From contig JBMNLH010000001.1 of assembly GCA_050952625.1 (NCBI GenBank), positions 1,504,001-1,568,000 of the forward strand: a DNA stretch of 64,000 nt, in the 5' to 3' direction. Below are positions 12,502 to 56,818 of this stretch, one piece after another. Both the position numbers and the translations under genes were made by a program. Position 1 is the first letter of the stretch. Each line of letters starts with the position of its first letter. This stretch comes from Bacillota bacterium (GTDB taxonomy: Bacteria > Bacillota > Ch66 > Ch109). The notes under the pieces were generated by a model. That model saw only the letters and a list, made by a program, of their open reading frames with translations, searched no databases and was not told the origin of the DNA.

Positions 12502-12643
12502 CTTTTCGTGCGCCCCCCATGCCGGTGGGGCACAACACCGATACACGCCTCACCCCTTAACTTCTTTGCGTCTTACGCAATTTATTCTTGTTAGCTTCTT
12601 GTTAGACATCCATACCCGCTAGACACAACCACCAATGAAAAGA
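12502..12643 (+). repeat. Two degenerate copies of the CATG-hairpin-CACAACCAC-ATGAAAAT site
   Basis: ccccatgccggtggggcacaacac at ~12515 and catccatacccgctagacacaaccaccaatgaaaa at ~12607. Confidence 0.55.
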
Positions 12644-12809
12644 ACACAACAATAAAAATCAATAAAAATAAAAGCGTTATTTACTTGTCCTCATGATTAC
12701 AACCACGGATAAAAATATCTTATATTCCTACCAAAATACTGATTTAAACACAAGGCCAACGAACAATCGAGGCAGAGGGTTTTTGGCCTCTGCCTCTAAT
12801 CATTCATCT

Positions 12810-14564
12810 TTAGTTCAAATTTATATGAGCACTGCCGGTATTCGCATCCCAGAAAACCTTCCCGCCCAAGGCCTGACTAACAAACCGGAGGGGGACGAGA
12901 GTCCGTTCTTCCTGGATCTTCGCCGGAACATCCAGTTTGACATTTTTCCCGTTCACTTTAGCCCGAGTAGAACCGATCGGCAACTCAACCTTAGTCTTAC
13001 CTTTCGTGGCTATTACGGTCCTGGTTTCGCCTTCCCAACCAACCTCAGCCCCCAGGGCTTCAAAAATTTTTCGGACAGGCACCAGGATTCGGTCATTTTC
13101 CATGGTTGGCGGGACCTCTGCTAGTTCGAAATAGATTCTCTCGTCGTTGATAAAGATAGGAATTTGATTAAGAACCACCAATCCAGCACTAATTCCCCGT
13201 TCCCGACCGTCTGACAGGGAATTGGCGATGTCACCCATGACTAATAACTCGGAAGAACCTCCGCCATCCAGGGCCATCGCTTCTACCGCCCCAAGTTCCA
13301 GCATTATATCGGCTAATTCGTCAAAAGTTACGCCGACGCTAGTTTCTTGTCGGCCATCCACCACGACCATCAGGACTTCTCCTTTAGCCGTCAACCCAAT
13401 GGCGGTGCGAGGGTGACGAGCCCAGAGGCCGCTATCTAATCCTTCTTTATTAATCGGTACAGTCTTGCAGCCCTTGCTTAACAGTTGGGGGCCGTTGGAG
13501 ATCATATGTAAGATATCTGGTTTATCTTTCAGATCCACCTCTAAAACAACCGTATCGCCGACGCTAAAGTGTTGGGCATAGTTCGTACACGTTCCTTTGA
13601 AGGAAATCACGACCCCACCCGGCGGAATAGTTGTGCTGCCATTAATTATTTCAGCAACTTTAAGCTTGCCTTGGAAATCTTTTTTCAGAACTAGCTCAGT
13701 ACAAATTCCTCCATCTTCCCCATTATTAGTCGTATTTTGGCCAAACATTGAGTTGTAAACTGCTATGCCATTAGCTGTTTCGCAAGGACGATTCATGGCA
13801 TCCACCCGGAAGATTAATTTCTTGTCGGGCAAGCGGAGAGTAGTATAGGGCAAAAATTGATCGATGTAGATGTCCTTATTAGTTGTGATGATCAATGAAG
13901 TTGCTGCTCTGGGACTCTGTACCATCAACTTCTGATCAATTATTGTCGTGTCAATGACACTCCGTTGGCCGCCCGGATAAAAGAACGGACCGTTGATCGC
14001 CGCAATCGCGCCGTAGGGCTGACTGATATTAGTCAGGGTGCTTAGCTTGTTAAACCCGTCTCCAGCGAGGACTGGCCTGATCTCTACCCAGGGCTGATTG
14101 GGATCCACCTTAACATAATGAATATTAACCGGGCTATTATCACTGAGAACCTTGGCCATTGAGGAGTAGCTTATTCCCTTGTCTAAGGTCTTGGTTTCCA
14201 GTAAAACTGGTTTGGTAGAAACCGGGGGCTGACTGATTGAGCTAGGCATAGTGGAATTACTATTTGTTGGGGGACTGCCGTTGTCGGTCCTAGTATCACT
14301 GCTTGATGGTGCCGGTTCACTATCAGAAGTCAAATCATTACTATCGTTACTTTTCTTATTATCATTACTATCTATTAATGAATTGTCAGGATTGCTCAAA
14401 GAGGTGTCTTCATTCTGGGCAACGCTAGTAATCTTAGCTTTAACCGACTCACTTGGAACCTCTGCCCCCAGAGGCAACGCAACCCCCAGATTAAATAAGA
14501 AGAGAAAAGCGGTTATGCCGCCAGCTGCTTTCAGTCGACTTCGTTTAAAAGACTCAAGAACCAT
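12810..14564 (-). CDS. Secreted phosphodiester glycosidase (NAGPA-like) with C-terminal copper-amine-oxidase-N (stalk) domain
   Basis: Signal peptide, Ser/Asn-rich linker, AAINGPFF, HPRTAIG, VDGRQ, ALDGGGSS; C-terminal RTLVPLRFVSQALG. Confidence 0.88.
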   Translation of the reverse strand: MVLESFKRSRLKAAGGITAFLFLFNLGVALPLGAEVPSESVKAKITSVAQNEDTSLSNPDNSLIDSNDNKKSNDSNDLTSDSEPAPSSSDTRTDNGSPPTNSNSTMPSSISQPPVSTKPVLLETKTLDKGISYSSMAKVLSDNSPVNIHYVKVDPNQPWVEIRPVLAGDGFNKLSTLTNISQPYGAIAAINGPFFYPGGQRSVIDTTIIDQKLMVQSPRAATSLIITTNKDIYIDQFLPYTTLRLPDKKLIFRVDAMNRPCETANGIAVYNSMFGQNTTNNGEDGGICTELVLKKDFQGKLKVAEIINGSTTIPPGGVVISFKGTCTNYAQHFSVGDTVVLEVDLKDKPDILHMISNGPQLLSKGCKTVPINKEGLDSGLWARHPRTAIGLTAKGEVLMVVVDGRQETSVGVTFDELADIMLELGAVEAMALDGGGSSELLVMGDIANSLSDGRERGISAGLVVLNQIPIFINDERIYFELAEVPPTMENDRILVPVRKIFEALGAEVGWEGETRTVIATKGKTKVELPIGSTRAKVNGKNVKLDVPAKIQEERTLVPLRFVSQALGGKVFWDANTGSAHINLN

Positions 14565-14732
14565 TTTTAACCTCCTTAAATTCTACGTATAATAGCTGAT
14601 TCAACATTCCAGTTTAATTCCATTTTACTTTATAACGTTACAAACACTATGAGGGAAACACAAAACCGAACTATTTATATTCGACTTGGTCTATAGTTAT
14701 TTGACCACCCAGGCTCATAAATTGTTCCCTAA

Positions 14733-14794
14733 GTGAACTCGTTCAGCTTCACCGAAGATCGAGAGTTTAGAGGGGGTCTGCTCTACTTGAAGTT
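14733..14794 (-). mobile_element. Degenerate non-autonomous IS200/IS605/IS607-like right-end element
   Basis: Minus strand aacttcaagtagagcagacc...gaagctgaacgagttcac aligns with the copy at 36060-36123. Confidence 0.6.
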
Positions 14795-14892
14795 TAAGCC
14801 CGGATTTGTCATTTTTAGTATAATACCACCTGTATGAAGGCTTTTAGAATTCGTATTAAAAATGGAAAAACTCAAAAATCGCTTAGATCTCA

Positions 14893-16732: not shown

Positions 16733-16927
16733 TTAATTAATCCCTCTTTTCATCAAACTAAACTCTGAAATAATAACACTTATTGGTTTACTCCGCAGCA
16801 GTTTACTCCGGCGGCCGGCTAAACGGGAAAAACCGCTGGCCTCGGTCATTCATCGAACTCATGCGGTGTGGGGTATTGCTATAAGGAGTTTTTAATCAGC
16901 AAATTAGCAGTTTTTAAACAGAGATTT

Positions 16928-16954
16928 ATTCTGCAAGCAAATTATAAATCCTGC
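16928..16954 (-). promoter_or_regulatory. Sigma-H-like promoter
   Basis: GCAGGA-17nt-GAAT, same spacing as B. subtilis spoVG. Confidence 0.6.
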
Positions 16955-17037
16955 CTAAAACAAAAACACCTGCCAAAAAAGTTGAAGGTGTTATTGAAGG
17001 TGTCGAGGTATTCAGCTAACCTCAGCCGGTCATGTTA

Positions 17038-18144
17038 TTACTGATTATACTCGTTATCTGCTTGCAGCCTGCTTTTTTGGCGAGCATTTTTTAGTACGTT
17101 CCGATAATGCACCTGACTAAGCACCTGTTCATTAAAACGTAAAGCAGCCAGTCGGAAGCCGTGTTTGAGGGACAGTTGATAAATCTCAGTTATTCTCTCT
17201 GGTTGGTACTCCCGGCCAAGACTATAGCTGTCAAATCGCTCCTCTAAAGCCAGAATCATGGTTTCCGCCATACAGGCGTAGGTTAAACGCGGGGGAAAAC
17301 CAAAGTTAAAACCAAAATCCACATCGCCGGGAACTTCCAGAACCCCGCCATCAAAAACCAGAACATCATCTCGTTCCTGCGCGACCCGCTCCGAGGTATC
17401 CCGCGGCCGGGCAACATCGCAGATGATTGCCCCCGGTTTTAAGTATTCGGGCTGGATTAAGGCCCCGGGAGAACTGGAGGTCGCCAGGATTACGTCAGCC
17501 TTTCTCACTGACTCAGCCACGTTGGTCGAGTAGTCTACTGAGATTGACTCACCATAATACCGACGAATTAATTTGGCTGTTTCCTCAAGACGCGGTTCAT
17601 TTCGAGCCATCAGGGTCAGGTTATGGACTTCATTAGCCAGGATACTGGAAACAGCTAACCCGATTGAACCAGTCGCTCCCACCACCACTACGGTCGCTTT
17701 CTTCAGGTCAATGTCCATAATCTGGGCCGCCTGTCGGGTACCGGCAATCGCGGTGGCCGCGGTTAGGCTGTTGCCAGTAGTTACACCAATCTTCAAATGG
17801 CGGGCGACGGTTAATCCGGCATCACCAACCACTGAAGTAAAAGCACCCAAGCCCAGTATGCGAGCTCCTAATTTTTCCGCTAGCTTTCCCGCTTCAATAA
17901 TTCGCTGTAAAACGAAAGAAGCGGGCAGTTCCACCATCTGACGAGAAGTTAAGGTTATGGCCAGAAAATTACCTCTTGTTTTCGCGTGTTTCGATTCAAC
18001 TCCGGTAATTTCCGATATCCGCAGGGGCGGGAGTTTCGTCAGCAGCCGATTAATCCATGCTTGGGGGAGATGCTTTATCAACTTATATTTCCGATAAAAA
18101 TCGTCAATAGTGAGCGGATGGATTAGGAAAGCAAATTGATTCAT
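17038..18144 (-). CDS. Acyl-ACP reductase (AAR)-like NAD(P)-binding protein (COG5322-type)
   Basis: FAFLIHP, TTGNSLTA, VVGATGSIG, YACMAETMILALE (catalytic-type Cys) and YSLGR parallel cyanobacterial AAR motifs. Confidence 0.8.
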   Translation of the reverse strand: MNQFAFLIHPLTIDDFYRKYKLIKHLPQAWINRLLTKLPPLRISEITGVESKHAKTRGNFLAITLTSRQMVELPASFVLQRIIEAGKLAEKLGARILGLGAFTSVVGDAGLTVARHLKIGVTTGNSLTAATAIAGTRQAAQIMDIDLKKATVVVVGATGSIGLAVSSILANEVHNLTLMARNEPRLEETAKLIRRYYGESISVDYSTNVAESVRKADVILATSSSPGALIQPEYLKPGAIICDVARPRDTSERVAQERDDVLVFDGGVLEVPGDVDFGFNFGFPPRLTYACMAETMILALEERFDSYSLGREYQPERITEIYQLSLKHGFRLAALRFNEQVLSQVHYRNVLKNARQKSRLQADNEYNQ

Positions 18145-18242
18145 TAAACGACTGATCCTCCGTTTTTTTCGATTACGTATTTATGCCTATTAGGCATTTA
18201 TTATCCTATTTTTCACATGACAAATATGGATTAATAAGTCAA

Positions 18243-19643
18243 CTAACGTCCAATCAGACCTTTAACGGCTGATCGGGCACCCCGCCAGGCTAATGACGCG
18301 ATTCCCTGGTTGACAAAAATCTGTTCCAGAGCAGAAATCACATAATCAATCTGTGACCGCTCAATAATCAGGGGGGGCTCCAGTCGGATAACGTTTGGAT
18401 TATTAAGGGTATAAGCAGTGATTATTCCATGTTGCTCTAGTAATTGACCGGCCACGATTGAGGCAAAGTATTCTTCCGCTAATTTCTTGACTGTTCCACC
18501 GGTGAGGGTATTCAGGAGACGTGAGTTTGGTGAAGCAAACTCAATACCAATTAACAAGCCCCGGCCACGAACCTCAGCCATGACGGGGTATTTTTGGGCT
18601 AACTCTTGCAGTCTTTCGAGAAAGTAGCATCCGTTAATGCGGGCTTTATTAGCCAGATCTTCTTCGATCAGCAACTGAATAGAGGCCATCGCCCCGGCCG
18701 CGGCTAGGGTATTGCCCCCAAAAGTAGAGGTGTGCAGGGCCGCTCGTTCCATCCGACCGTAGCCAGCCTCCCAAATTTTATCCGTCGTGATATAGGCACC
18801 AATCGGCATCATGCCCCCGCCCAGCGACTTGCCCAAACACAGAATATCTGGTACTACCTGTTCCTCTTCACAGGCAAATACTGACCCGGTCCGGCCAAAA
18901 CCGGTCTGGATTTCATCAAGAATTAGCAAGGTCCCGTAACGGGAACATAGGTCTCGCACCGCTGCAAGGTATCCTGACGGCGGAACCCGAACGCCGGCTT
19001 CCCCTTGAATCGGCTCCAAGATAACCGCCGCCACATCTTTACGAGCCAATCGGGTTTCCAGTCGGGTCACGTCGCCAAATGGGACCGCCTCTACCGCCGG
19101 AACCAGGGGTTCAAACGGGGTTTGATATCTAGCGCGGCCGGTGACTGATAAAGCCCCAAACGTTTTGCCGTGAAAAGAGTTTTCCGCATGAATAATCGTT
19201 TTCCGGCTAGTAGCGATCCGGGCTAGCTTTAAGGCTCCCTCGACTGCTTCTGCACCACTATTGCCAAAAAATGACCGATTCAAAGCCCCTGGCGTAATCT
19301 TGGCCAGATTAGCGGCCAGCAGGCTAGCCACCACCCCCATTGAGGCCTGCAGGAGATTGGGAAAATCCATGACCTTTTCTAAGGCCTGCCATATTTCTGG
19401 GCGATTATGCCCAAAATTCATCGCCCCGTAGGCCCCTAACAAGTCAAGGTAGCGGCGGCCAGTATCATCCCAGATATACATCCCCTCAGCTCGAACATAT
19501 TTTCGATCAAAACCAATCAACCGTAACATATTGTATAACTCCGGGTTAACATGTTGGCGGTATAGTTCTCCTAACTGCTCCCGCGAGATGATAGTGGCAT
19601 CTTCCAAACGATATAAATCTACTTTTTCCTTCAGTCTAGCCAT
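18243..19643 (-). CDS. Class III PLP-dependent aminotransferase
   Basis: NSGAEAVEGA, SFHGKT, EPIQGEAG, DEIQTGFGRTG, LGKSLGGG, HTSTFGGN; ATG at 19643 with AGGAGG SD. Confidence 0.92.
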   Translation of the reverse strand: MARLKEKVDLYRLEDATIISREQLGELYRQHVNPELYNMLRLIGFDRKYVRAEGMYIWDDTGRRYLDLLGAYGAMNFGHNRPEIWQALEKVMDFPNLLQASMGVVASLLAANLAKITPGALNRSFFGNSGAEAVEGALKLARIATSRKTIIHAENSFHGKTFGALSVTGRARYQTPFEPLVPAVEAVPFGDVTRLETRLARKDVAAVILEPIQGEAGVRVPPSGYLAAVRDLCSRYGTLLILDEIQTGFGRTGSVFACEEEQVVPDILCLGKSLGGGMMPIGAYITTDKIWEAGYGRMERAALHTSTFGGNTLAAAGAMASIQLLIEEDLANKARINGCYFLERLQELAQKYPVMAEVRGRGLLIGIEFASPNSRLLNTLTGGTVKKLAEEYFASIVAGQLLEQHGIITAYTLNNPNVIRLEPPLIIERSQIDYVISALEQIFVNQGIASLAWRGARSAVKGLIGR

Positions 19644-19781
19644 GGATATCCTCCTGTTGTGCACAATTTTGTACACATAATCTACATAATAGATTATACA
19701 TATATTTTTCAATTTTATGCAAGGAAATTTTTTCTATAATAGGGTTCTTTCAGTGATTATTGGAATGCTAGGTCAAGGCTA

Positions 19782-20882
19782 TCATCGGTGGCGGAGAGAA
19801 ACCGTTATACTCCCCAGGTCCGCGTTCAGCCGAATCCGTCCTTGCCCATCGCCTAATTGGGTGACTCTTTTATTGCCTTCAATTTTCCAGGGACTTTGCT
19901 CTGACCAATTAACAGAACCACGGTTAGCCTCAGCTTCCAGGATGGCATTTGAGTTGTCGGGAATTTGTACCTCAATTGAGCCCATTGCGGTCCGCAGGTC
20001 CCAGTTGTGAGCCACCGGGTAATCGGTCCGGACGTTAATCTGTCCTTTGTCTGCCTCAATCACCAGATCACCTTGGCAGTCTCTGACAACAACCATGCCT
20101 AGGTTAGATTTTAAGACCATATTCCCTTGTCCGTTTTCCACCCGGATATTTCCCGAATTATTTTCTACCGCCACTTTGCCCTGGCACCCTTTCACCACGG
20201 TCTCCCCCAGATTATTGATAATACCCAGATCGCCGGCCAAATCTTCAACAGATACCTGACCGGCCTTGTTATCAACCTCCAGGTTTAAATTGGGCGGTAA
20301 TTCAATATCGTGATTGACTCGGACACCCCGTTGGTTTGGTCCTTCATCAACTCGAATCAGCAAAGGATCTCCTGGTGTTACTTTAACCTCAGCGAGCTGT
20401 TCTTGACCGGAATTGCCATCTGATATCTGACCTTTAACGTGAATCTGCCCATCCTGCGAAGCCCGAACTTTAACCCCGCCCAACTTATTTTCTATCCGCA
20501 CCCCCTGGCCTTGATAATCGCCGATTGGAGCTAATTCAAACGAACGGCTGACACTCCGGTGTGGCCCCAAGTTAGTTAATTCATCCCTTAATTCCCAAAA
20601 GGGGGTCTTGGGCACCCAGGCTCCGACCGCCAAACCACCCGAAATAAGGGCTAAGATCAGCAGACTGCCCAGGCTCCACCGAATCCGAGTCTCCGGGCCA
20701 AACTGACGGTATCGCCACAAATACTCCAACCCCAAAAGAACCAGGAGCAAGGGCCACCACCGGGTCAGGTAACTAAAGGTAACGTAGGGGGTGAGGTTCT
20801 GGATTAACCAAGCCGCGCCTAACCCAATGAGCGAAACAGCCAGAGTGATTACGCCTACTCGCACCGGTTCTCGCTTATTCAT
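19782..20882 (-). CDS. Membrane-anchored DUF4097 beta-strand repeat (LiaG-like) protein
   Basis: N-terminal TM segments with WWPLLLVLLGLE; repeated G.I.V beta-solenoid units. Confidence 0.8.
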   Translation of the reverse strand: MNKREPVRVGVITLAVSLIGLGAAWLIQNLTPYVTFSYLTRWWPLLLVLLGLEYLWRYRQFGPETRIRWSLGSLLILALISGGLAVGAWVPKTPFWELRDELTNLGPHRSVSRSFELAPIGDYQGQGVRIENKLGGVKVRASQDGQIHVKGQISDGNSGQEQLAEVKVTPGDPLLIRVDEGPNQRGVRVNHDIELPPNLNLEVDNKAGQVSVEDLAGDLGIINNLGETVVKGCQGKVAVENNSGNIRVENGQGNMVLKSNLGMVVVRDCQGDLVIEADKGQINVRTDYPVAHNWDLRTAMGSIEVQIPDNSNAILEAEANRGSVNWSEQSPWKIEGNKRVTQLGDGQGRIRLNADLGSITVSLRHR

Positions 20883-21858
20883 CTTGGTCTAATACCTCCT
20901 TCCGTGGCGACCGAGTCCGGTAGAGGATCAGTAACCCCAAGCCGATTAAAACAATCGGTCCTCCGAGCATTCGGATATACTTTTCCACTAACAGACTAGG
21001 GAAAAGGTTATTTAACAGAAGCAAGGCCCCGGCTCCGATCAAGATATAGGCAACAATCGCGCTGTACCGTTTTGTCTGCGGATTAGTCTGAGAAGTCAGG
21101 GGCATCTCAGGCGGAACCGGTTGCCGGATATCTGACGCGACCGGGTCGGATATGGTTAATTCTACTTCCCCACTTACTGAAGCTTTCTCGTCGCCGGTTG
21201 TCCAAGCAGATGAAGACGCCTCTCCTGCGGGGTATTGATTTGAAACACCGGGGTCGATCCGGTCCGAATCATTTTGGGCCGAACTGCCGCCCACATTGAA
21301 ACCACTCGTTCCGGTTGCTGTTCCTGGCTGAACAGTCGATGAAAACGGTCCGGCTGACCGGGAAGCATCTGGGCCGGGATTCTGGGTCATCGGGTTTTTC
21401 AAGCCAATTGACTTCCACTCAAAAAATCCTCGGTCTAGTATCCGGCCGGTTCGATTTAGGTCCCCCGCAATCTGCTGAGTATCAAAAATCGTGTATAACA
21501 TTAGGACCGGTATCACCAAACCGTTTAAAAAATCAAGGTTTAGCACTTCACTTAGAAAGATAGTCCCAACAAAGATCAACAGAGTCTGCAAGCCGCGATT
21601 CATTAAACCTAGATACATGTAGCCACCACCGGGGATTATAGACAACAGCAAGGCTAAGCCGCGGCTCTTTGACTGTCCTGGTTCAAGCTGCACCCAACTC
21701 GCTTCAGTTGATTGACTGCTCTTACCTAAGGCACTTGTTGCGCAGCTTCGACAGTAAATTTGTCCATTGACTGAAACCGTACAACTGCTGCAGATTGGTT
21801 GCCTGCAACTGTGGCAGTGTTCAACCTCTGGGGCGGATGGATGGTAAATACAGGACAT
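20875..21858 (-). CDS. B-box zinc-finger membrane protein
   Basis: CxxH...CxxC...CxxC...CxxC N-terminus; IPGGGYMYLG TM2-like segment; C-terminal TM hairpin. Confidence 0.8.
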   Translation of the reverse strand: MSCIYHPSAPEVEHCHSCRQPICSSCTVSVNGQIYCRSCATSALGKSSQSTEASWVQLEPGQSKSRGLALLLSIIPGGGYMYLGLMNRGLQTLLIFVGTIFLSEVLNLDFLNGLVIPVLMLYTIFDTQQIAGDLNRTGRILDRGFFEWKSIGLKNPMTQNPGPDASRSAGPFSSTVQPGTATGTSGFNVGGSSAQNDSDRIDPGVSNQYPAGEASSSAWTTGDEKASVSGEVELTISDPVASDIRQPVPPEMPLTSQTNPQTKRYSAIVAYILIGAGALLLLNNLFPSLLVEKYIRMLGGPIVLIGLGLLILYRTRSPRKEVLDQDE

Positions 21859-21884
21859 TTTTCTTTTCCCCCTTATCTACACTT

Positions 21885-21963
21885 GTGTTTTACTCAGTCA
21901 GCAGGCTAGACTGGATCGAAAACTAGGTGATGCATATCGCCAATCGCTGACTTTTTATAACAT
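21885..21963 (-). repeat. Internally deleted copy of the GTGTTTT...AAAACAC long-hairpin repeat
   Basis: Minus strand gtcagcgattggcgat...ccagtctagcctgctgactgagtaaaacac matches the 55092 and 55285 copies. Confidence 0.8.
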
Positions 21964-22055
21964 GGTGTGTACGTGCTTAGCGAGGTTTAAACCTTAGCAG
22001 CCTTTGCGTTAAAAACTCATAGTGAGCACCTCACCCCTCACACCTAACAACTGCC

Positions 22056-22625
22056 CTAGATCAGCCAGAAAACCAACAAACTGTAAAACGAGCCAACAAC
22101 CTCTATCCGCACATTCCACAAAAAGTCTTCTACTGCCTGACCGGTGCTGGCATCCAACTGAAACAAACTGAAAAATTCTTGCCAGGGACTATTTTGAACA
22201 AGTGAGATGATTTCTTTCCCCAAGGAATAACTGCCCCAGTCTGTAAAAAACAACCAGGTAGCAGCTAGCGCAGCCCCCAGGTTAATTAGTGAGCCCCACA
22301 AATCAGACTGGCTGTTGGTCCCTTCAGGCTTTGTTAGCCTGGTCCACCGAGCAGCGGCTCGCTCAATCAGCTTCGGTTTCGCCTGCTTAAGCGCAACTTC
22401 TTTATCCGCTAGAGCTACTTGTTCCATGATTGCAGCCAACAATTCCGGAGGCGGTTCGCCGGCGGGGAATTCACTCAGCACCTGGTCTAATTCCGCCCAA
22501 GCTTTCAGCTCTTGCTGACATAAGATGCATTCTGCCAGATGTTGTTCAATTCCTTGTCTGGAACAACCATCGACTGCCCCGTCTCGGTAATTGGGCAGTT
22601 GTCTTTGCACTTGTCGGCATCTCAA
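22056..22625 (-). CDS. Zinc-binding anti-sigma factor (zf-HC2, RsiW-like)
   Basis: C...HLAECILC motif and TM segment; follows the ECF sigma; TTG start with GGGGGTG SD. Confidence 0.85.
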   Translation of the reverse strand: MRCRQVQRQLPNYRDGAVDGCSRQGIEQHLAECILCQQELKAWAELDQVLSEFPAGEPPPELLAAIMEQVALADKEVALKQAKPKLIERAAARWTRLTKPEGTNSQSDLWGSLINLGAALAATWLFFTDWGSYSLGKEIISLVQNSPWQEFFSLFQLDASTGQAVEDFLWNVRIEVVGSFYSLLVFWLI

Positions 22626-23208
22626 TTCCCACACCCCCTTTTTCCGGGTTGTTTTCCTTTTTAATTCGCTCTTTTAACATCACCCGGGCTCGATAGAGCC
22701 GAGTTTCCACGGTTCGAGCCGGGATTGTTAAGGTTTCCGCAATCCTTTCGTAAGAAAAACCATGATAGTAGTGCAACACCAGGACTAAACGGTACTTTTC
22801 CGGCAAAGAATCCAGGAGAAATCGAACTCGCTCTGCCTCCTCCTTTTTCAGATATATTTCCTCCGGAGTAAGATTTAGTAATTGCTCCTGACGACTCATA
22901 AGCCCAAATCCGCGAGTCAGTTTATCCTTAATCGATAATGATTGATGCCGGTGTTTCCTAAGCCAATCAACTACTTTGTTGCTGGCTACCCGATAAATCC
23001 AGGTAGCAAAACGGGCTTCGCCGCGAAAACTGCTCAGGTTTCGATAAACTTGGAGGAAAATCTCCTGGGTTAAATCACGGGCATCCTCGCCGAACCCCAC
23101 CATCTGGCCGGCCAGGTTATAGATTGGACCCTGGTATCGCTCTACTAACTGAGCAAAGGCCTGCCGATCTCCTTGAATCACAAGTCGGACCAATTCTTCA
23201 TCCCCCAA
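22546..23208 (-). CDS. ECF RNA polymerase sigma factor (SigW-like)
   Basis: AFAQLVERY, DLTQEIF, FATWIYRVA, SYERIA, TVETRLYRAR. Confidence 0.92.
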   Translation of the reverse strand: MGDEELVRLVIQGDRQAFAQLVERYQGPIYNLAGQMVGFGEDARDLTQEIFLQVYRNLSSFRGEARFATWIYRVASNKVVDWLRKHRHQSLSIKDKLTRGFGLMSRQEQLLNLTPEEIYLKKEEAERVRFLLDSLPEKYRLVLVLHYYHGFSYERIAETLTIPARTVETRLYRARVMLKERIKKENNPEKGGVGIEMPTSAKTTAQLPRRGSRWLFQTRN

Positions 23209-23479
23209 GGGTCCAATCCCCCCTTCGTTGCTGATTTTAGTCTTATATATTTAGACGCGATCTTTGGATATGGTACTTCATTTTGGCTCAAAATAATTGT
23301 GATCGAAATATCTGAAGTATGACGAATGATCAACCCGGCTAATATTAAAACTAACCTTAAAAATTAGGTTAGCCCAAATATCCCGCTTCTACAAGCCGTT
23401 TAGTCCGGCCAGGATAAATACTTTATATCAGAGACTAATGAGCTAACATTTTGCGAACCGCAAAGGGGGTGATTCGCAA

Positions 23480-23620
23480 TTGGAACTTAATCAGCTAGAT
23501 AGAATTCCTTTAGCCAACCTTACTGATCATGAGCTTCAGATGCTTCGGCAGTTAGAAGAAAAATTCAATGACCGCTACTATCTGATTGCTTTTCAGAAGC
23601 CTGACGAAGAAAGATTTTAA
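23480..23620 (+). CDS. Small 46-aa protein, not in the ORF track
   Basis: SD GGGGGTGA then TTG; MELNQLDRIPLANLTDHELQMLRQLEEKFNDRYYLIAFQKPDEERF. Confidence 0.7.
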   Translation: MELNQLDRIPLANLTDHELQMLRQLEEKFNDRYYLIAFQKPDEERF

Positions 23621-23765
23621 CCGGCACCACAGAGGACATTCGGCACTTGAAGTATTTTTCTATCAGCTAAAGGAAAGCTTATAAAAGATACGCTTAAAAA
23701 ATTCGGGCAGGCTAGCTTTTTTAGTATCTGTATTTTTAATGATTAGAGGGCGAGGCGAGAAAAAA

Positions 23766-24239
23766 GTGCCGGATAGAATTGAAAAGTATCTGGTCTCCAA
23801 TAGTTTAAGCATGACCCGGGACTATGCTAACCGTGAAGAACCCTTCAAACTAAATCAAGGCGAGCGTTCGGTCCTGGGCTACTTCCCTAGTAGTACTAAA
23901 GCGGACAAAGCTGTTGAGCAACTGAAAAACATGGGTATCAAGACCGTCCAATTAGACCGTGTCAGCCGCTATGGCGTAAGCAATGATGGTGAATACAACA
24001 CTCCCCTGACCGGAACCGCCTCCACGCAAACCGGGTTAAGCCTTTTTTCGACTGAGATTGGCGAGATTGCCGACCCCAGTGCCCGAGTTCTCCTGGGAGC
24101 TGACCCTTCAGTTAGTGGTATGGCTAGCCGTGGCTATGGTATGGCAGGCGGCTACCCGTTTCTAGTGACGGTTGTGACTGACGATAACCAGGCTGACGAA
24201 GTGACCCGAATTATTGAAGCGCATGGCGGGTATGTCTAG
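23766..24239 (+). CDS. Hypothetical protein, probably co-transcribed with the SpoIID-like gene
   Basis: Long ORF 29 nt upstream of the SpoIID-like gene; start uncertain. Confidence 0.65.
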   Translation: MPDRIEKYLVSNSLSMTRDYANREEPFKLNQGERSVLGYFPSSTKADKAVEQLKNMGIKTVQLDRVSRYGVSNDGEYNTPLTGTASTQTGLSLFSTEIGEIADPSARVLLGADPSVSGMASRGYGMAGGYPFLVTVVTDDNQADEVTRIIEAHGGYV

Positions 24240-24268
24240 AGGTCTAAATAAAGGAGGGGGATTTAATC

Positions 24269-25255
24269 ATGGGTCGAAGGAAAAAATCAAGTTTGGCAGT
24301 ATTTCTGACACTGTTCCTTATCTGCATCTTCATTCTAGCTGGCTGTGATCAACCACAGCAGAAACCGGGTGGCCAGACCGCACTCCCGGCAATCCCGGGG
24401 CCAATCAACAAAGGGGCCGGAGTTGAACCAGAACTGCTGGTTTATCTGGATGATCAAAAAAGGGTCCAGAGTATGCCCATGGAAAAATACATTCAGGGAG
24501 TAGTCGCCGGAGAAATGGAGCCGGACTGGCCGGAAAATGCCCTGGCCGCTCAGGCAATTTTAGCTCGAACCTTCACGCTGCAAAAAATTGCGGAAAAAAA
24601 TAAGTTAGAAAACCGTAATGCTCATGCCTCGACAAACGAAAAAGAATTCCAGGCTTATGATGCCTCCAAAATTAACGACCGTATCAAAAATGCCGTTGAA
24701 AAAACACGCGGCCAGGTCCTGGTCCACAATGGCAACTACATTCGGGCCTGGTTTCACGCCTACAGCGGCGGCAAAACCGCTACAGCTCAAGAAGGTTTAG
24801 ATTTTAATCAAGGACCAACCCCTTATATCCAGTCGATCGATGACTCTAGTTTTGACCAGGGGATTCCGGCAGAAGTCCGGAACTGGACCGCCAGCTTTTC
24901 GCTGGATCGGGTTCGAACTGCGGTTAGACAAGTAACGGGTAAGGACCCTGGTGCGGTAACTAGGATTGAGATTGTGAAACGCTCCGAATCCGGTCGGGCA
25001 GCGACCCTGCGGGTCAACAACACGGAAGTAAACGGTAATGATTTCCGGCTGGCACTTGACAGCACAACCCTCAAGTCAACCTTAATCACTGATATTAAGA
25101 TTGCTAACAGCAAAGCGGTTTTTCAAGGGAAAGGTTATGGACATGGTGTGGGGATGTCCCAATGGGGGGCCCGGGTGATGGCCGAACAAGGAAAAAATCC
25201 GGAAGAGATTGCTTTGAATTATTTCCGGAATTGTCAAGTGGTGAAATTATGGTAG
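24269..25255 (+). CDS. SpoIID/LytB domain lipoprotein (lytic transglycosylase)
   Basis: Lipobox LAGC; YIQGVVAGEM, ALAAQAILART, GYGHGVGMSQWGA. Confidence 0.9.
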   Translation: MGRRKKSSLAVFLTLFLICIFILAGCDQPQQKPGGQTALPAIPGPINKGAGVEPELLVYLDDQKRVQSMPMEKYIQGVVAGEMEPDWPENALAAQAILARTFTLQKIAEKNKLENRNAHASTNEKEFQAYDASKINDRIKNAVEKTRGQVLVHNGNYIRAWFHAYSGGKTATAQEGLDFNQGPTPYIQSIDDSSFDQGIPAEVRNWTASFSLDRVRTAVRQVTGKDPGAVTRIEIVKRSESGRAATLRVNNTEVNGNDFRLALDSTTLKSTLITDIKIANSKAVFQGKGYGHGVGMSQWGARVMAEQGKNPEEIALNYFRNCQVVKLW

Positions 25256-25470
25256 ACAATAATCAAGATGCTGGTTGTCCTCTATGTAACAGTCTCATCT
25301 CATTACATCAAGTTTGTCCCCAATGTTACCAAACCTTGCTTGATGGTGGCCGGGTAGAGGACTTTTTAGCTCCGTATGCGCCATATGAAGAACTAGATAC
25401 GGATTGGGAACCATGCACTCACTTGATTTATTGCCCGGCCTGTGGTCAGGATTGGCGAGTGACAATCTAA
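25249..25470 (+). CDS. Small Zn-ribbon protein
   Basis: CPLC, CPQC, CxH and CPAC; ATG overlaps the end of the SpoIID-like gene. Confidence 0.7.
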   Translation: MVDNNQDAGCPLCNSLISLHQVCPQCYQTLLDGGRVEDFLAPYAPYEELDTDWEPCTHLIYCPACGQDWRVTI

Positions 25471-25504
25471 CCGGCCTGCCTCCGCGAAGAAGACCTAACT
25501 CCGC

Positions 25505-25698
25505 TATTAGATTGGGAGTCTTTGATTTAGATAAACGCAGGCATCAAACCTGTCTTGGATTAAAGGATGATGCCTGCTTTATCTTTAGCTGTTTTTGGGA
25601 AATCGTCAGTTTCACTGGCGGAAGGCATACCTGGTGCGCTTAACTGACTTATCCGCTATTTTCATAGGTGGTTGTGTCCTTGGGGCATGGGTTATTAA
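25505..25698 (-). repeat. CATG-hairpin-CACAACCAC-ATGAAAAT site (25657-25698) followed by a degenerate long-hairpin cargo
   Basis: Minus strand taataacccatgccccaaggacacaaccacctatgaaaata; stem GCAGGCATCA (25537) / TGATGCCTGC (25568) identical to the 55-kb repeat. Confidence 0.7.
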
Positions 25699-25715
25699 TA
25701 AGTTGGCTAACCGAG

Positions 25716-25964
25716 TTACTGATCGATAATCTCTTCGCTCGTATCCGGTATTGCGTAAAAAACTACCAGATCATTTTCCTTCAAAAGATAATCACCCATC
25801 TGAACACTACCATTCACAATAGCCATATAGGCCATTTCTCCGGGTATCCCTAATCGTTCGCCCAACTGAGCCAAGACTGTCCCATCCTCAACCTCAATTT
25901 CCGTCCAGTAGGAAGTCTCATCCGTCATGTATAAGGAACTAACTATCTCGACTAATACCAGCAA
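25716..25964 (-). CDS. MoaD/ThiS-like beta-grasp protein lacking C-terminal GG
   Basis: GT...L..RLGIP....AIVNG.....YLLKENDLVVF pattern; AAGGAG SD. Confidence 0.7.
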   Translation of the reverse strand: MLVLVEIVSSLYMTDETSYWTEIEVEDGTVLAQLGERLGIPGEMAYMAIVNGSVQMGDYLLKENDLVVFYAIPDTSEEIIDQ

Positions 25965-26092
25965 TCTAGACTACTCCTTTATCACTACGCTCTCTGCTGT
26001 AAAGTAGTATTAGTCACAAATTATAAATTCATCCCCGCTCCGCTGAAGCCGATAGGAATCGCACTTAGTTCACATGAATACTGTAGACATTA

Positions 26093-26581
26093 TTAGGTAA
26101 TCTTTTCTAATGAATGATCAATAGTTTCTAACCCCATAAATCCCTGTTGACGCAGGGCCTCATACAAAATCACCGCCACTGAGTTGGACAGGTTGAGTGA
26201 ACGCGCTTCCTGACGTATGGGAATGCGCATACACCGCTCCGCGTTGTCTTTTAGCAATGTGAACGGGAGTCCTTTAGTCTCTTTGCCAAAAACTAGAAAA
26301 CTATCCGAGGGAAAGCAAAATGAGGTGTAAGGTTTACCTCCTTTAGTTGTTGCAAAAAAGAAACTGTTTCTGGGGTGACTTGCAAAGAGTTCCTGGAAGC
26401 TGTCATGGTAACGGATATCTACTAAATGCCAGTAGTCCAAACCGGCTCGTTTAAGATAACGGTCATCAGTCGAAAAACCTAACGGTCGAACCAAATGAAG
26501 GATAGTGCCAGTAGCTGCACAGGTTCGGGCAATATTCCCTGTGTTATATGGTATCTCCGGTTCCACCAGAACAATATGCAT
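26093..26581 (-). CDS. trmL: tRNA (cytidine/uridine-34 2'-O)-methyltransferase
   Basis: PEIPYNTGNIARTC, RAGLDYW, FGKETKGL, RSLNLSN. Confidence 0.95.
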   Translation of the reverse strand: MHIVLVEPEIPYNTGNIARTCAATGTILHLVRPLGFSTDDRYLKRAGLDYWHLVDIRYHDSFQELFASHPRNSFFFATTKGGKPYTSFCFPSDSFLVFGKETKGLPFTLLKDNAERCMRIPIRQEARSLNLSNSVAVILYEALRQQGFMGLETIDHSLEKIT

Positions 26582-26722
26582 ACTTTGGATCCGTTCCTTT
26601 CTAGGTTTTATAGATTAAGTATACCCAAACGTCAGCTGCTCTTTATTAGCTAAGAGGCTTTCAGGGCAGTCTGCTCTACTCCGACAAAAACTACGCGCGT
26701 GTTTTAACTCGGTAATTTTTCC

Positions 26723-27409: not shown

Positions 27410-27445
27410 GCAAAAACCTTTCTTAAATTAAACAAAGTACCTAAA

Positions 27446-27500
27446 ATAAGCACTTACTAGAATAAGCACTTAGATAGAATAAGCATCCAGAATAAGTGCC
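27446..27500. repeat. Degenerate tandem repeat (AATAAGCAC core, 4 units)
   Basis: aataagcacttactag aataagcacttagatag aataagcatccag aataagtgcc. Confidence 0.75.
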
Positions 27501-27502
27501 TA

Positions 27503-27520
27503 GTGAACTCGTTCAGCTTC
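27503..27520 (-). mobile_element. Terminal fragment of the IS200/IS605/IS607-like right-end element
   Basis: gtgaactcgttcagcttc, identical to 14733-14750 and to the reverse complement of 36106-36123. Confidence 0.55.
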
Positions 27521-27596
27521 ATATCATTTTACTGCCATAAGAACATGATAGGCAATTTGGCATTCAGTTATCAAACTACTTTACATAGCACTTGTT

Positions 27597-27648
27597 GAAG
27601 ATACTAATAGAAGATACTAATAGAAGATACTAATAGAAGACACTAATA
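27597..27648. repeat. 13-bp tandem repeat (~4 units)
   Basis: gaagatactaata repeated. Confidence 0.9.
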
Positions 27649-28407: not shown

Positions 28408-28475
28408 AAAACTCACAACCTTAACTTTATCTTGATGGGACATAGGGACATATTTACCATCCCGGTTTAGATTAC

Positions 28476-28590
28476 TAACCGCATGCCTGTTAGGCACAAC
28501 CACGGATGAAAATAACACAAACTGCGAGAGAAACGTGTTATTTTCTGACTAACCGCCCATTCCCTAAGGTCACAAACTAAATGTTAAAAA
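28476..28590 (+). repeat. Site - short hairpin cargo - site compound repeat
   Basis: taaccgcatgcctgttaggcacaaccacggatgaaaat + aacac...gtgtt + attttctgactaaccgcccattccctaaggtcacaaac. Confidence 0.8.
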
Positions 28591-29611: not shown

Positions 29612-29619
29612 TTCTCATG

Positions 29620-29667: not shown

Positions 29668-29744
29668 CTGGTTGACGCAATGAGTACGATGACACTGATG
29701 ATGGCCCTGATGGTTGCTGTTATCAGGATGAAATAGTGAAGCAG

Positions 29745-32602: not shown

Positions 32603-32688
32603 TATTAAGAAAATAACACGTTCCTTATCGTTTGGGTTATTTTCATCTGTGGTTGTGCTTAACGGGCATGGGTGGTTAATAATAAAAT
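32603..32688 (-). repeat. Site plus short hairpin cargo, near-copy of 28476-28552
   Basis: Minus strand attttattattaaccacccatgcccgttaagcacaaccacagatgaaaataacccaaac...aacgtgttattttcttaataac. Confidence 0.8.
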
Positions 32689-49710: not shown

Positions 49711-49843
49711 ATTTATTGCTAACCGCCCATATCCGTTAGGCACAACCACCTATGAAAATATCGGACATATGTCATCCTGAGCGTGAGCGAAGGATCTAGC
49801 TTAAGTCTATTAACATTTACCGCATATATCTATTTCGCTCTAA
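49711..49843 (+). repeat. Site plus REP-like cargo (GTCATCCTGAGCG..AGCGAAGGATCT) plus TATTTC-N4-TAA end
   Basis: atttattgctaaccgcccatatccgttaggcacaaccacctatgaaaata ... gtcatcctgagcgtgagcgaaggatct ... tatttcgctctaa. Confidence 0.75.
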
Positions 49844-51691: not shown

Positions 51692-51844
51692 CATCGGCCT
51701 TGCGGCCTCACCATAATGCCATGAAAAATCAATCGCGCTGTGTTTTAACGAAGGTCAGCGTTTGGCGATTTACATCATTTTATTTCGTTCCCAGTCTAGC
51801 CTGCTGACCGAGCTAAAACACAAGCGCGGTTATTTTCAGAGTTA
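51692..51844 (+). repeat. Variant site plus internally deleted long-hairpin cargo (51740-51821) plus TATTTTC-AGAG-TTA end
   Basis: catcggccttgcggcctcac...atgaaaaat; gtgttttaacgaaggtcagcg...ctgctgaccgagctaaaacac; tattttcagagtta. Confidence 0.8.
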
Positions 51845-55084: not shown

Positions 55085-55091
55085 TCGCTGA

Positions 55092-55250
55092 GTGTTTTTA
55101 ACGAAGGTCAGCGATTGGGATCTACATCAAAAAACGAACATAGCTGGGGATCAGCAGGCATCACTGTCTGAGCCTGAAAGGCGAGTTTGATGCCTGCCCG
55201 AAGCCGACGAGGTTCGTTCCCAGTTTAGCCTGCTGACCGAGTAAAAACAC
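55092..55250 (+). repeat. Full-length ~160-bp long-hairpin repeat, copy 1
   Basis: GTGTTTTT/AAAAACAC ends with nested stems GGTCAGC/GCTGACC, GCAGGCATCA/TGATGCCTGC and GCC/GGC. Confidence 0.92.
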
Positions 55251-55284
55251 AAGCGACTTAATAACACATGAAATCCGACGCGCC

Positions 55285-55443
55285 GTGTTTTTACGTAGGT
55301 CAGCGATTGGCGATTTACATCAGAGAACGGAGGCGGCTGAGGATCAGCAGGCATCACTGTCTGAGCCTGAAAGGCGAGTTTGATGCCTGCCCGAAGCCGA
55401 CGAGGTTCGTTCCCAGTCTAGCCTGCTGACCGAGTAAAAACAC
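55285..55443 (+). repeat. Full-length ~160-bp long-hairpin repeat, copy 2
   Basis: Near-identical to copy 1 over its 3' ~100 bp; separated from it by a CACATGAAAT site remnant. Confidence 0.92.
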
Positions 55444-55462
55444 AAGCAACTATTATTCTCCG

Positions 55463-56818
55463 TTACTTAACCGGGACAACGAACCTGTCCCCCTGTCCTA
55501 CAAGTCGGTTGCAGTTCTCTATGACTTCCCTTTCATTAATCGTGAGCAATTCCCGATTAAACATGACTACCCGGCCGTCGATAATTGTCGTCTCCACGTC
55601 CGAAGCGCGGGCAGCATAAACCAGACGAGATACGGGATCTACTTCGGTCTCGGGTAAACTGTGAACTTGATTCAGGTTCACGATGATTAAATCAGCCCGT
55701 TTCCCCACCTCCAGGCTCCCGATCTCTTCCTCCAGGCCCATGGCGCGTGCCCCGCTCAGGGTAGCCATTTCCAGCACTCGGGCTGCCGGCATGGCGGTTG
55801 GCCCGTAACGCACCTTATGAATCAAAGCAGCTAAGCGCATTTCTTGGAACATATCCAAATTATTCGCACAAGGGGCCCCATCTGCCCCTAGGGCCACTGT
55901 AATCCCTTTTTCCAGATACTCGGGTACCGGGGCTAGGCCGGAAGCCAGTTTGAGGTTGGAACTCGGACAGTGCACGACGCTCGTCCCGGTCTGGCGCAGA
56001 ATCTCGATTTCCGAATCATCCAGCCAGATACAATGCGCCAGCAGCAGATTCGGCCCGGTTAAGCCAAGCTCATGCAGGTAGATAATATTCCGGGCACCTC
56101 TTTCCCGCTGAATTAACCCTACCTCGCTCCGGTTCTCAGAGGCATGCGTATGGATCATGACCCCATAGTAATCCGCCAACCGGGCTACTTCCCGCAGCAA
56201 ATCGTCCGTACAGGAAACAGCAAACCGGGGCTGAAACGCAAAACGAATCCGGCCGTCATCCCGGCCGTGCCACTTCTCGAGGAGGCGAACGCTTTCCTGA
56301 ATCGAATCAGTTGCCTTTTCCCGCAGCCCAGCCGGTACTCCCTCCCCACAGTCCATCATTACTTTGCCGCTAACTGCGCGCAACCCATTTTCCAAAATAG
56401 CCTGGAAAGCGGCGTCGGTATGGTGGACCGTCTCCATATCCATGATGCAGGTCGTTCCGCCGCGAAACAATTCGGCACAGCCGAGCATCGCGGAATAATA
56501 GAGAGACTCCTCATTATGCGCGGCTTCTAACGGCCAGATTCGCTGCCGCAGCCAATCCAAGAGCTCCAGGTCATCCGCCTGGCCTCGAAACAAGGTCTGG
56601 CTGAGGTGAATGTGTGCCTGAATCAAACCCGGCATAACTATTTTCCCCGTAGCCTCAATAACCAGGTCAAAATCCGCTGGGTCTATAGGTGGCTGCGGTT
56701 TCGGGATAATTGAGGCGATTCTTTTTCCTTCAATAATTATATCCGCCTGATAAATGTCTCTTTGCGAATTCATCGTAATCAGTTGTCCATTTCGGATCAG
56801 AATCCTTTGTATAGTCAT
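55463..56818 (-). CDS. Amidohydrolase, 5'-deoxyadenosine/MTA-SAH deaminase family
   Basis: PGLIQAHIH, HTHASE, LAHCIW, HCPSSNLKLASG, LGADGA, GSLEVGKRAD. Confidence 0.9.
   Translation of the reverse strand: MTIQRILIRNGQLITMNSQRDIYQADIIIEGKRIASIIPKPQPPIDPADFDLVIEATGKIVMPGLIQAHIHLSQTLFRGQADDLELLDWLRQRIWPLEAAHNEESLYYSAMLGCAELFRGGTTCIMDMETVHHTDAAFQAILENGLRAVSGKVMMDCGEGVPAGLREKATDSIQESVRLLEKWHGRDDGRIRFAFQPRFAVSCTDDLLREVARLADYYGVMIHTHASENRSEVGLIQRERGARNIIYLHELGLTGPNLLLAHCIWLDDSEIEILRQTGTSVVHCPSSNLKLASGLAPVPEYLEKGITVALGADGAPCANNLDMFQEMRLAALIHKVRYGPTAMPAARVLEMATLSGARAMGLEEEIGSLEVGKRADLIIVNLNQVHSLPETEVDPVSRLVYAARASDVETTIIDGRVVMFNRELLTINEREVIENCNRLVGQGDRFVVPVK
55467..55498 (-). repeat. REP-like palindrome GGGGACAGGTT-N3-TGTCCCGGTTAA
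   Basis: Second copy at 63663-63694; this copy forms the last codons of the deaminase. Confidence 0.7.

Follow-up and report, generated by a model that had tools for sequence, protein, structure and literature searches.

Insertion sequences (ISs) of the IS110 group have no terminal inverted repeats (TIRs), insert sequence specifically, and carry a long left end (LE) with a bridge RNA, according to the accessible text of PMC11208160. The same text states that, for IS621, a 22-bp donor was enough when the bridge RNA was supplied in trans. Two preprints, as far as their accessible text goes, extend this description. Recognition by the donor arm only, termed a half-match, drives both excision and insertion at off-target sites (Xie et al. 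2026 preprint, 10.64898/2026.08.31.748434), and tandem noncoding repeat units at IS110 loci retain left-donor matches (Hu et al. 2026 preprint, 10.64898/2026.08.14.744561). In addition, a derivative of the IS110-family ISPpu9 that resembles a MITE (a miniature inverted-repeat transposable element), MITEPpu9, is described for Pseudomonas putida in the accessible part of PMC12288879. Here, we analyzed a 64,000-nucleotide stretch of a Bacillota genome (the window; positions 1504001 to 1568000 of contig C1 in genome G000), in which a short sequence is repeated beside differing palindromes. Most probably, the repeat consists of gene-less miniature derivatives of an IS110-family (DEDD "bridge recombinase") IS, which were moved in trans and are here orphaned. 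The about ninety miniature copies are a relic of mobile DNA, not a new cassette-capture system.

Compared with the described systems, the full-length relatives of the repeat are typical of the IS110 group (e.g., IS621): they have the DEDD_Tnp_IS110 and Transposase_20 domains, no TIRs, a structured LE of about 270 nt, a short right end (RE), and sequence-specific insertion. The window copies, in contrast, lack the recombinase and the bridge-RNA region, and their target resembles their own RE. MITEPpu9 differs in that, in the text available, it carries the sRNA gene ssr9, occurs in 8 copies, lies beside its master IS, and belongs to a proteobacterium, whereas the present units are 74 bp long, number about 93, live in anaerobes of the Firmicutes type, and lack a master copy in their genome. 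The units of the Hu and Xie preprints are similar in forming head-to-tail arrays of short noncoding units whose boundaries keep left-donor-like (RE-tip-like) sequence. However, those units are described there as adjacent to the transposase, whereas the present ones are dispersed genome-wide, far from a recombinase. By both tips, the elements belong with non-autonomous IS110-family derivatives and not with the REP/RAYT, PATE, or attC systems treated below. MITEPpu9, the one named precedent that was found, and the tandem noncoding units next to IS110 transposases already represent this kind of element; what is new is the clade and its hosts, the gene-less and guide-less size of 74 bp, the about 93 copies, the dispersal without a master copy, and the nested palindromes. 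A literature search, with ISfinder and paper supplements outside its range, found no description of this repeat, and searches for Syntrophomonas repeats and nested small repeats likewise returned nothing on this element.

The repeated sequence, here called the core, is about 40 to 45 bp long and has the consensus TAACCGCCCATGCC-N5-GGCACAACCAC-NN-ATGAAAATA. A core profile was built from the G000 genome (2.9 Mb, 9 contigs, 45% G+C, 95.9% completeness) by iterated nhmmer searches. It matched 93 copies genome-wide at an E value of ≤0.01, and the window contained five strong copies (E values from 7e-7 to 1e-10) and four weak ones. A repeat search linked window positions 12596, 25657 (minus strand), 28467, 28542, 32638 (minus strand), and 49712, and a 20-position core pattern had 48 matches in G000, whereas the reversed pattern used as a control had none in all 41 genomes. 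The dispersed site of about 50 bp that an initial annotation of this DNA had reported is therefore real, and its central short hairpin and the AACCRC direct repeats on both sides of that hairpin are present. Among the positions listed there, those at 12515 (weak), 12607, 25657 (minus strand), 28476, 28540 (weak), 32638 (minus strand), and 49711 were recovered, whereas 51692, about 35995, and 55265 were not, and a copy at 60698 to 60724 (minus strand) had been missed. The supposed variant at 51692 neither aligned with the copies nor matched the core; it is the upstream flank of a member of family C, a separate MITE. The supposed remnants near 35995 and at 55265 had no core match and lie at or beside members of the same family, 55265 being the linker between two of them. 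The literal pattern ATTTTC-N4-TAACCRCC of that annotation was found at six places with up to two mismatches, against 1.07 expected, and only two of the six were real copies.

By its SpoIID, AddAB, and Cu_amine_oxidN1-domain proteins, the host is a sporulating Firmicute-type anaerobe. The distribution of the core is patchy, with 6 of 41 relatives carrying it and 38 loci in about 14 assemblies among 185,579 species genomes. Public records sharing the core are labelled Syntrophomonadaceae, Moorellaceae, and similar. Scans at the family level (6 genomes) and class level (7 genomes) gave nothing beyond the result of the pattern search in the 41 genomes.

On the evidence of its sequence, the core is the first ~45 nt of the LE of a specific IS110-family clade, whose ISs are about 1.65 kb long. 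During recombinase profiling, a core-like match was first noticed on contig C5 of genome G006, about 250 nt upstream of an IS110-type recombinase gene. The flank there reads ...GGATTTCGAAC and is followed by TAACCGGCCATGCC...GGCACAACCAATCATGAAAATAGG... and a 270-nt noncoding stretch. The gene, 270 nt downstream of the left boundary, encodes DEDD_Tnp_IS110 and Transposase_20 domains; in the full-length relatives, the matches were to PF01548 (E value of 1e-29) and PF02371 (E value of 1e-14). The right boundary lies about 1.65 kb from the start and reads ...GGTCTATTTTCGTGC/TAA (the slash marks the boundary), with unrelated DNA beyond. The right tip of the full-length IS ends YTATTTTCKTRYTAA, the same motif that closes the "cargo" hairpins of the window. 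L129, a public contig of 1,657 bp, is a complete IS from tip to tip. Its tips, ...TAACCCCCCATGCC... (also written ...TAACCCCCCATGCCCGCAGGGCACAACCAC...) and ...GGTTATTTTCTTAT/TAA, are closer to the G000 miniatures than the G006 tips are.

When the L129 recombinase was searched against 401 genomes of the phylum, 30 loci were returned. The core was located about 265 nt upstream on the same strand at 12 of the 14 loci with recombinase identity of ≥71%; the two exceptions were L234, where the contig is not long enough, and L242, which is broken at its N terminus. At identities of ≤51%, the core was missing from all 16 IS110 loci. All 12 testable full-length copies, which came from eight other genomes of the phylum, carried the core at the left tip, and each had the RE [CT]TATTTTC[GT]T[AG][CT]TAA at +1.5 to +1.68 kb. 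The complete genome G127 contains three IS copies with 0 to 4 mismatches in about 1,655 nt from the core start to the RE motif. Outside the IS, these copies are unrelated (upstream, 41 to 44 of 55 positions differ). Because the identity begins at the first bases of the core, the core moves with the IS as its left tip and is not the target. Repeat-collapsed contigs (L129 and contig C43 of G386) likewise start at the core and finish at the RE motif. The left flanks of full-length ISs read GGATTTCGAAC, CTATTTCAATC, ...TTACT, or ...TTAGT and are ATTTC-N4-like.

The LE of the full-length copies is conserved and structured, with 63 predicted pairs, 17 of which show compensatory changes; this fits the published location of the bridge RNA in the long LE of the IS110 group. 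The short hairpin of the core (hairpin 1) covaries at two of its five pairs, and the segment just 3' of the core pairs with sequence beside the start codon, also with compensatory changes. The LE additionally includes an RE-tip-like segment (ATTTTCTGCTAC) and an LE-tip-like segment (CTAACCTAACC). Four full-length IS loci showed no Rfam match at an E value of ≤1. The recombinase of the clade has 7,479 homologues at an E value of ≤1e-60 (metagenomic copies), and its database homologues form classes of ~312 to 326 and ~412 to 419 aa. As a separate observation, an A7 or A8 run (GCAGGAAAAAAA(A)GTCC) splits the recombinase gene in seven of seven copies (L225:1590-1600, L129, L235, L236, L238, L241, and L257), where A9 would be in frame. 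This split may reflect programmed transcriptional slippage or frameshifting.

We then examined the units of G000. A miniature consists of the LE tip (TAACC...ATGAAAATA), a short or expanded linker, and the last ~15 to 20 nt of the RE (...TATTTTCTTAC). The modal complete unit was 74 bp, and 13 of 20 short units had exactly this length. Excepting one segmental duplicate, the nearest-neighbor identity among the short units was 81 to 95%. Each of the eight units that were folded showed a two-hairpin fold, in which hairpin 2 is formed by the GAAAAT of the core (5' arm) and the following ATTTTC (3' arm). Since GAAAATA of the LE is complementary to TATTTTC of the RE, every miniature folds hairpin 2 once the interior is gone. 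What the initial annotation had read as the next ATTTTC is thus the 3' arm of the hairpin opened by the core. The unit ends (TAACCGCC... and ...TTTTCTTAC) form no inverted repeat under any boundary choice, and the unit is directional.

According to what follows them, the 93 cores were divided into 20 of type A, 28 of type B, and 45 of neither type, 40 of the latter being solitary. In type A, the core is followed by the hairpin GAAAATAACAC-loop-GTGTTATTTTC, then by TTAC and usually by TAA. In type B, it is followed by GCGGACATAT, a palindrome of about 75 bp (GTCATCCTGAGCG...CGCTCAGAATGAC), and a tail, with complete units ending ...CTATTTTCTTAC TAA. The interior of hairpin 2 measured 2 to 9 nt in G017, about 14 nt in type A, about 25 nt in G005, and about 110 nt in type B, and units with nested palindromes reached about 200 bp. 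G017 units were 56 to 60 bp and arranged in head-to-tail arrays, and core-A-core-B composites occurred in G000. The NN dinucleotide and the hairpin-1 loop of the core tracked type A or B, thereby indicating subfamilies and not free exchange. An RE motif was located within 260 nt downstream on the same strand in 29 of the 93 cores, and the control counts were 4 of 93 (opposite strand), 2 of 93 (upstream), and 10 of 930 (random windows); the 64 copies without the motif are LE-only fragments. No recombinase gene was attached to the window copies or to any of the 93 copies, and in the window copies the bridge-RNA region was missing as well, leaving just ~45 nt of LE and ~15 to 20 nt of RE.

The hairpin-2 loop would tolerate or attract other small palindromes, and anything between the LE and RE pieces, original or inserted later, looks like interchangeable cargo. 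In other Syntrophomonadaceae-labelled metagenome-assembled genomes (MAGs; loci L117, L118, L125, L126, and L128), the same core was followed by other modules, e.g., ...GATTAACCACAGATGAACACAGATT..., and the miniature loop thus hosts different passengers by lineage.

The mobility of the units was investigated by comparison with the congener G001, which is syntenic with the window at 91 to 95% identity. Four of the five strong window copies (12.6, 25.66, 28.47, and 49.71 kb) were absent at the orthologous G001 places, and the 32.64-kb copy was common to both genomes. Clean 74-bp insertions present only in G001 were found at L167 and L172, and a 74-bp unit difference between the two genomes lies at C1:1002.5 kb. 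Insertions present only in G000 included a 60-bp core-only block at C1:1628.0 kb and a 100-bp block at C1:1019.0 kb. At L163, the orthologous locus contained type B in G000 and type A in G001, and at L154 the B palindrome was precisely absent from an otherwise shared element in the congener. In the filled/empty differences, the boundaries coincided with the edges of entire units; they did not lie at an internal crossover, as the cassette reading of the initial annotation would require.

Insertion occurred next to T-rich ...TTAY/TAA sites resembling the RE tip of the element itself. In all five clean junctions, a T-rich run led up to TTAC or TTAT at the end of the left flank, and three of the five sat directly behind terminator-like hairpins. 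TAA usually followed the element (13 to 14 of the 20 type-A units). Left flanks of the same type border the full-length ISs. A long target duplication was not found, the identity of the 5' flank being 0.48 with the unit's own 3' end and 0.46 with that of other copies. A handful of junctions suggests that the crossover ("core") nucleotides are AA or TAA. Four public runs with matching sequence, used as Logan contigs only, were compared with window positions 16801 to 36800; no contig skipped a unit, which says nothing for or against excision. The contigs broke at the repeats (25652 to 25690, 28494 to 28520, and 32608 to 32636), and one X8 contig spanned the 25.66-kb copy. The individual copies in the window are listed in Table 1.

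Table 1. Core-derived units and family-C MITEs in the window (positions counted from its first nucleotide)
Feature	Position	Strand	Match (nhmmer) and details
Degenerate weak LE core fragment	12516..12536	+	E 0.096
Block of ~160 bp, missing from G001	12577..12739	+	Degenerate miniature plus partial second unit; left flank ends TCTTAC
Miniature within the 12577-12739 block	LE core 12603-12641, RE-like end 12674-12688	+	Core match 12608-12641, E 7e-7
Partial second unit within the 12577-12739 block	12689-12739	+	Weak core match 12698-12716, E 0.076
Solo LE fragment, core then GCGGA, no RE	25657..25697	-	25658-25691, E 2e-9
Complete 74-bp type-A miniature, absent from G001	28476..28549	+	Core 28482-28513, E 1e-9; TTAC directly before (28472-28475); end reads ...TCTGAC; hairpin 1, 28484-28488/28492-28496; hairpin 2, 28508-28518 (GAAAATAACAC) with 28535-28545 (GTGTTATTTTC)
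Older degenerate LE half-site, common to G000 and G001	28550..28577	+	28551-28575, E 1.1
Complete 74-bp type-A miniature, also in G001	32605..32678	-	Core 32639-32677, E 3e-10; hairpin and RE at 32602-32634
Truncated unit: core, GGACATAT, 5' half of type-B palindrome (49765-49800)	49720..49806	+	Core 49721-49759, E 1e-10; without RE; absent from G001
Degenerate LE fragment directly 3' of a terminator-like hairpin and ATTTCTCAAC	60698..60727	-	60698-60724, E 0.006
Internally deleted family-C member, not part of the core element	51741..51826	+	No core match
Two tandem full-length family-C MITEs, not part of the core element	55096-55255, 55286-55447	+	No core match
Further family-C members	21882-21959, 16802-16861, 36001-36027	-	

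The solo core at 25657 to 25697 lies within a segment of about 410 bp (~25600 to 26010) that is missing from G001. This segment also contains a small ThiS/MoaD-like open reading frame (ORF) of about 70 aa on the minus strand, read by eye. No other instance of a gene that moves together with a core was seen.

By analogy with described IS110 systems, the miniatures would have been moved in trans by the recombinase and bridge RNA of the clade. The three published IS110 results (22-bp donor, half-match, and tandem units) make such mobilization plausible. With a target resembling its own RE tip, each copy would be a landing site for the next, and this preference would explain both the G017 arrays and the core-A-core-B composites of G000. 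Given that G000 has no cognate IS and that the copies diverge by 5 to 19% from their nearest relatives, the G000 family is probably an orphaned, largely fossil population.

Several findings weigh against the derivation of the units from an IS110-family IS moved in trans. G000 itself has neither a full-length IS nor a recombinase of the cognate type: with the whole IS as blastn query, only its first ~50 nt were matched, and the nearest IS110 recombinase of G000 is 45% identical and has unrelated ends. The element-rich genomes G005 and G017, both fragmented MAGs, gave no IS110 match. Multi-copy ISs are often lost from MAGs, which may excuse this result and is not evidence. In the IS-bearing genomes, the numbers of cores and recombinase matches were 8 and 5 (G127), 3 and 3 (G066), 3 and 3 (G203), 4 and 3 (G386), and 5 and 1 (G395); these genomes thus have few or no spare cores, and miniatures and master copies were never seen thriving together. 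Moreover, only 29 of the 93 copies keep a recognizable RE, and some of the blocks specific to G000 exceed a single unit or are less tidy (25.6 kb, 28.5 kb, and C4:252.7 kb). Neither circles nor junction reads nor transcripts were seen, the public runs being contigs only.

We further weighed whether the units are pre-existing REP-like targets, with an IS110 element inserting into the hairpin-2 loop and the core representing flanking target DNA. IS110-family elements are known to target repeated elements, as the accessible text of PMC11208160 reports, and the type-B palindrome shows that insertions into the hairpin-2 loop happen. However, the G127 cores are 100% identical among copies, with identity from the first bases, whereas the free G000 miniatures differ by 5 to 19%. 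In addition, the IS-bearing genomes have almost no unoccupied units, the repeat-collapsed contigs run from the core to the RE motif, and the post-core segment pairs with the start-codon neighborhood with compensatory changes. We regard this explanation as unlikely. Repetitive extragenic palindromes (REPs), bacterial interspersed mosaic elements (BIMEs), and REP doublets forming hairpins (REPINs) resemble the present units in being high-copy, intergenic, hairpin-forming, mosaic, and sometimes tandem, and a single-copy enzyme is believed to move them in trans (PMC3116915, accessible text). REPINs, however, are inverted REP doublets tied to a Y1 REP-associated tyrosine transposase (RAYT), whereas the present unit is directional, has two unlike hairpins, and carries IS110 ends. 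The palindrome-associated transposable elements (PATEs) of IS200/IS605 are also gene-less LE-plus-RE miniatures of a TIR-less IS beside a short motif, as described in the accessible text of PMC10055086 and PMC3201880. Their enzyme family and ends differ, and the strand bias expected of single-strand elements is absent here. If the units were PATE- or REP-like elements of the HUH (Y1) single-strand kind, mobilized 3' of TTAC by a RAYT or by the TnpA of an IS200/IS605 element, this would agree with the lack of TIRs, the subterminal hairpins, and the directional units. It would also agree with the TTAC or TTAT flank in five of five clean junctions, since IS608 inserts 3' of TTAC (PMC3201880, accessible text), and a Y1 gene was present in all four element-rich genomes. 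We nevertheless consider this explanation very improbable, because both tips match an IS110-family IS, the IS605 ends of G000, G017, and G005 carried no core (nhmmer E value of ≤1), and the two hairpins of the unit are unlike each other. No replication-strand bias was observed (25 co-oriented versus 35 anti-oriented on the 1.73-Mb contig C1), and of the 41 relatives, 27 had Y1 genes, most of them lacking the element. Around the RAYT-like gene of G000, the flanking repeat is another one and no core is present; the gene is absent from G005 and G017. The HUH or RAYT partner suggested in the initial annotation thus did not emerge, with no core at the IS605 ends or beside the RAYT-like gene. A search for a Y2 transposase gave no match and found none in the control genomes either, so absence is not shown. 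A short resemblance of the LE hairpin (CCCNTGCC-loop-GGCA) to the IS605 copies did not extend, and a TnpB remnant located 290 nt from a core at C4:105.5 kb was judged a coincidence. The IS200/IS605 element of G000 at C1:1582.7-1584.5 kb, 16 kb past the window, has a frameshifted tnpA, an intact 482-aa tnpB, and a left flank that ends TTTAC.

The initial annotation had favored a cassette system, in which attC- or dif-like sites would spread unrelated palindromes. This proposal gains from the GAAAATA-TATTTTC interior, which is variable in length across genomes and types, from the occurrence of type B in G000 and type A in G001 at L163, and from the precise presence or absence of the B palindrome within the shared element at L154. 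Its idea of a recombination site was also right in spirit, as a site-specific recombinase not encoded beside the core would act on it. The cassette idea falls, however, on the IS tips, on the linkage of types A and B to core variants, on the whole-unit edges of the filled and empty sites, and on the lack of any protein-coding cassette bounded by two sites. The core is the LE tip and the closing ATTTTC-NTAC the RE tip of an IS110-family IS, so that the site proved to be the end of a known kind of IS, the very finding that the annotation had named as refuting it. Two of the palindromes listed as cargo indeed come after the core, namely the hairpin (28.5 and 32.6 kb) and the half-palindrome GTCATCCTGAGCG (49.77 kb), whereas GTGTTTT...AAAACAC is not cargo but family C, which adjoins a core in only 1 of 125 copies; the site-cargo-site tandem reported at 55.3 kb is a tandem of two family-C elements. 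Site and cargo are therefore independently distributed for family C only, types A and B being linked to core variants. A second core followed only a few of the 93 cores, and gain or loss of a palindrome is expected from nested insertion or slippage without cassette exchange. Like an integron attC site, the unit folds, and the base of its stem is conserved while its center varies. In contrast to attC, it is an IS end without cassette ORFs and, as had been stated from the start, does not fit the RYYYAAC...GTTRRRY rule, the boxes being absent. Signs that a cassette system would leave, namely many loci with identical cores and shuffled cargo, circular molecules of cargo alone, and a dedicated, co-distributed integrase, were not found here, although the 10 tyrosine recombinase matches in G000 were not followed up as partners. 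There is hardly any probability left for a cassette system. Least probable of all is that the repeat is a host-selected functional element (terminator, sRNA, or protein-binding site) and not selfish DNA. Several copies do lie directly 3' of terminator-like hairpins and T runs, and the two-hairpin fold is kept in all eight units folded. However, the copies show no orientation bias although the genes are strongly co-oriented with replication, they vary in presence between congeners, and their phylogenetic distribution is patchy. Beside the cores, only SLH-type surface proteins and ABC ATPases recur, both of which are large paralogous families. No Rfam match supported a host function: at gathering thresholds, the window contained only two tRNAs, and eight unit-bearing loci searched at an E value of ≤5 gave only chance-level matches, on the terminator in L167.

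With the IS110-derived miniatures, the repeat family that stands out in this uncultured syntroph-type digester anaerobe (93 copies, 2.9 Mb) has an explanation, and the tempting but wrong reading of a new cassette system is removed. The miniatures offer a natural example of tiny gene-less, guide-less derivatives of bridge recombinases, which is useful for work on minimal donors and half-match off-targets. In annotation, masking as mobile DNA is appropriate for these repeats, for the palindromes nested in them, and for the unrelated MITE, none of which should be recorded as small genes or regulatory RNAs. More tentatively, and with more doubt than confidence, the 74-bp units could be the smallest natural bridge-recombinase substrates: bare donor ends, free of guide RNA and gene, that are copied in trans by half-match, seed new copies beside any site resembling their own RE tip, outlive the master IS, and offer other small palindromic elements a landing pad or a host loop. 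If so, REP-like families and tandem arrays across several anaerobic Firmicute lineages would have been built by bare IS110 ends, and part of the unexplained REP-like DNA in Gram-positive anaerobes would trace to such ends.

Other repeat families were found in the window and the genome. Family C is a 163-bp MITE with TIRs of about 25 bp (TGTGTTTTAACGAAGGTCAGC...) and 125 copies in G000, often in tandem arrays of 2 to 6. Its extended 5' consensus often includes ...ATGAAAAAT..., and GAAAA(A)T occurred within 40 nt upstream in 11 of 65 copies. At 21.9 kb, G001 has a shorter form of the family-C element, and 204 bases are missing there from one public contig. Family B, the REPIN-like palindrome of the type-B units, had 65 copies genome-wide (e.g., at C1:252.2 kb), roughly half of which are nested in the IS110 miniatures. 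In 33 of these, it had no intact core, several of them with decayed cores upstream; together with its precise loss at L154, this indicates a nested palindrome that is separately gained or lost. No RAYT flanked by the family-B palindrome was found. A second subfamily with a longer loop stands alone, and many family-B copies contain a further insert of about 55 bp (...CATGCGTTGACCGCACCACGATAAACGAATAATGG...) in the 3' arm.

Another repeat of about 85 bp (AAGTGAACTCGTTCAGCTTC...) lies at 14731 to 14797 and at 36041 to 36124 (minus strand), with dozens of copies in G001 and G004. An 83-bp block adjoining it (14794 to 14876) is missing from G001 at 14.8 kb, and G001 has a 3-kb insertion at the 36.0-kb position. 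In the window, a REP-like motif (...GGGACAGGTTC... / GAACCGTCCCCGTGG) recurs at scattered places (55467 to 55503 and 63658 to 63694). The same motif flanks a gene for a 275-aa Y1 (RAYT-like) protein with a C-terminal helix-turn-helix at G000:C5:74050-74877, and the two probably form a separate REP-RAYT pair. Finally, a 15-bp periodic repeat at 40125 to 40297 lies inside the ORF at 40115 to 41059 (minus strand) and is a low-complexity coding repeat.

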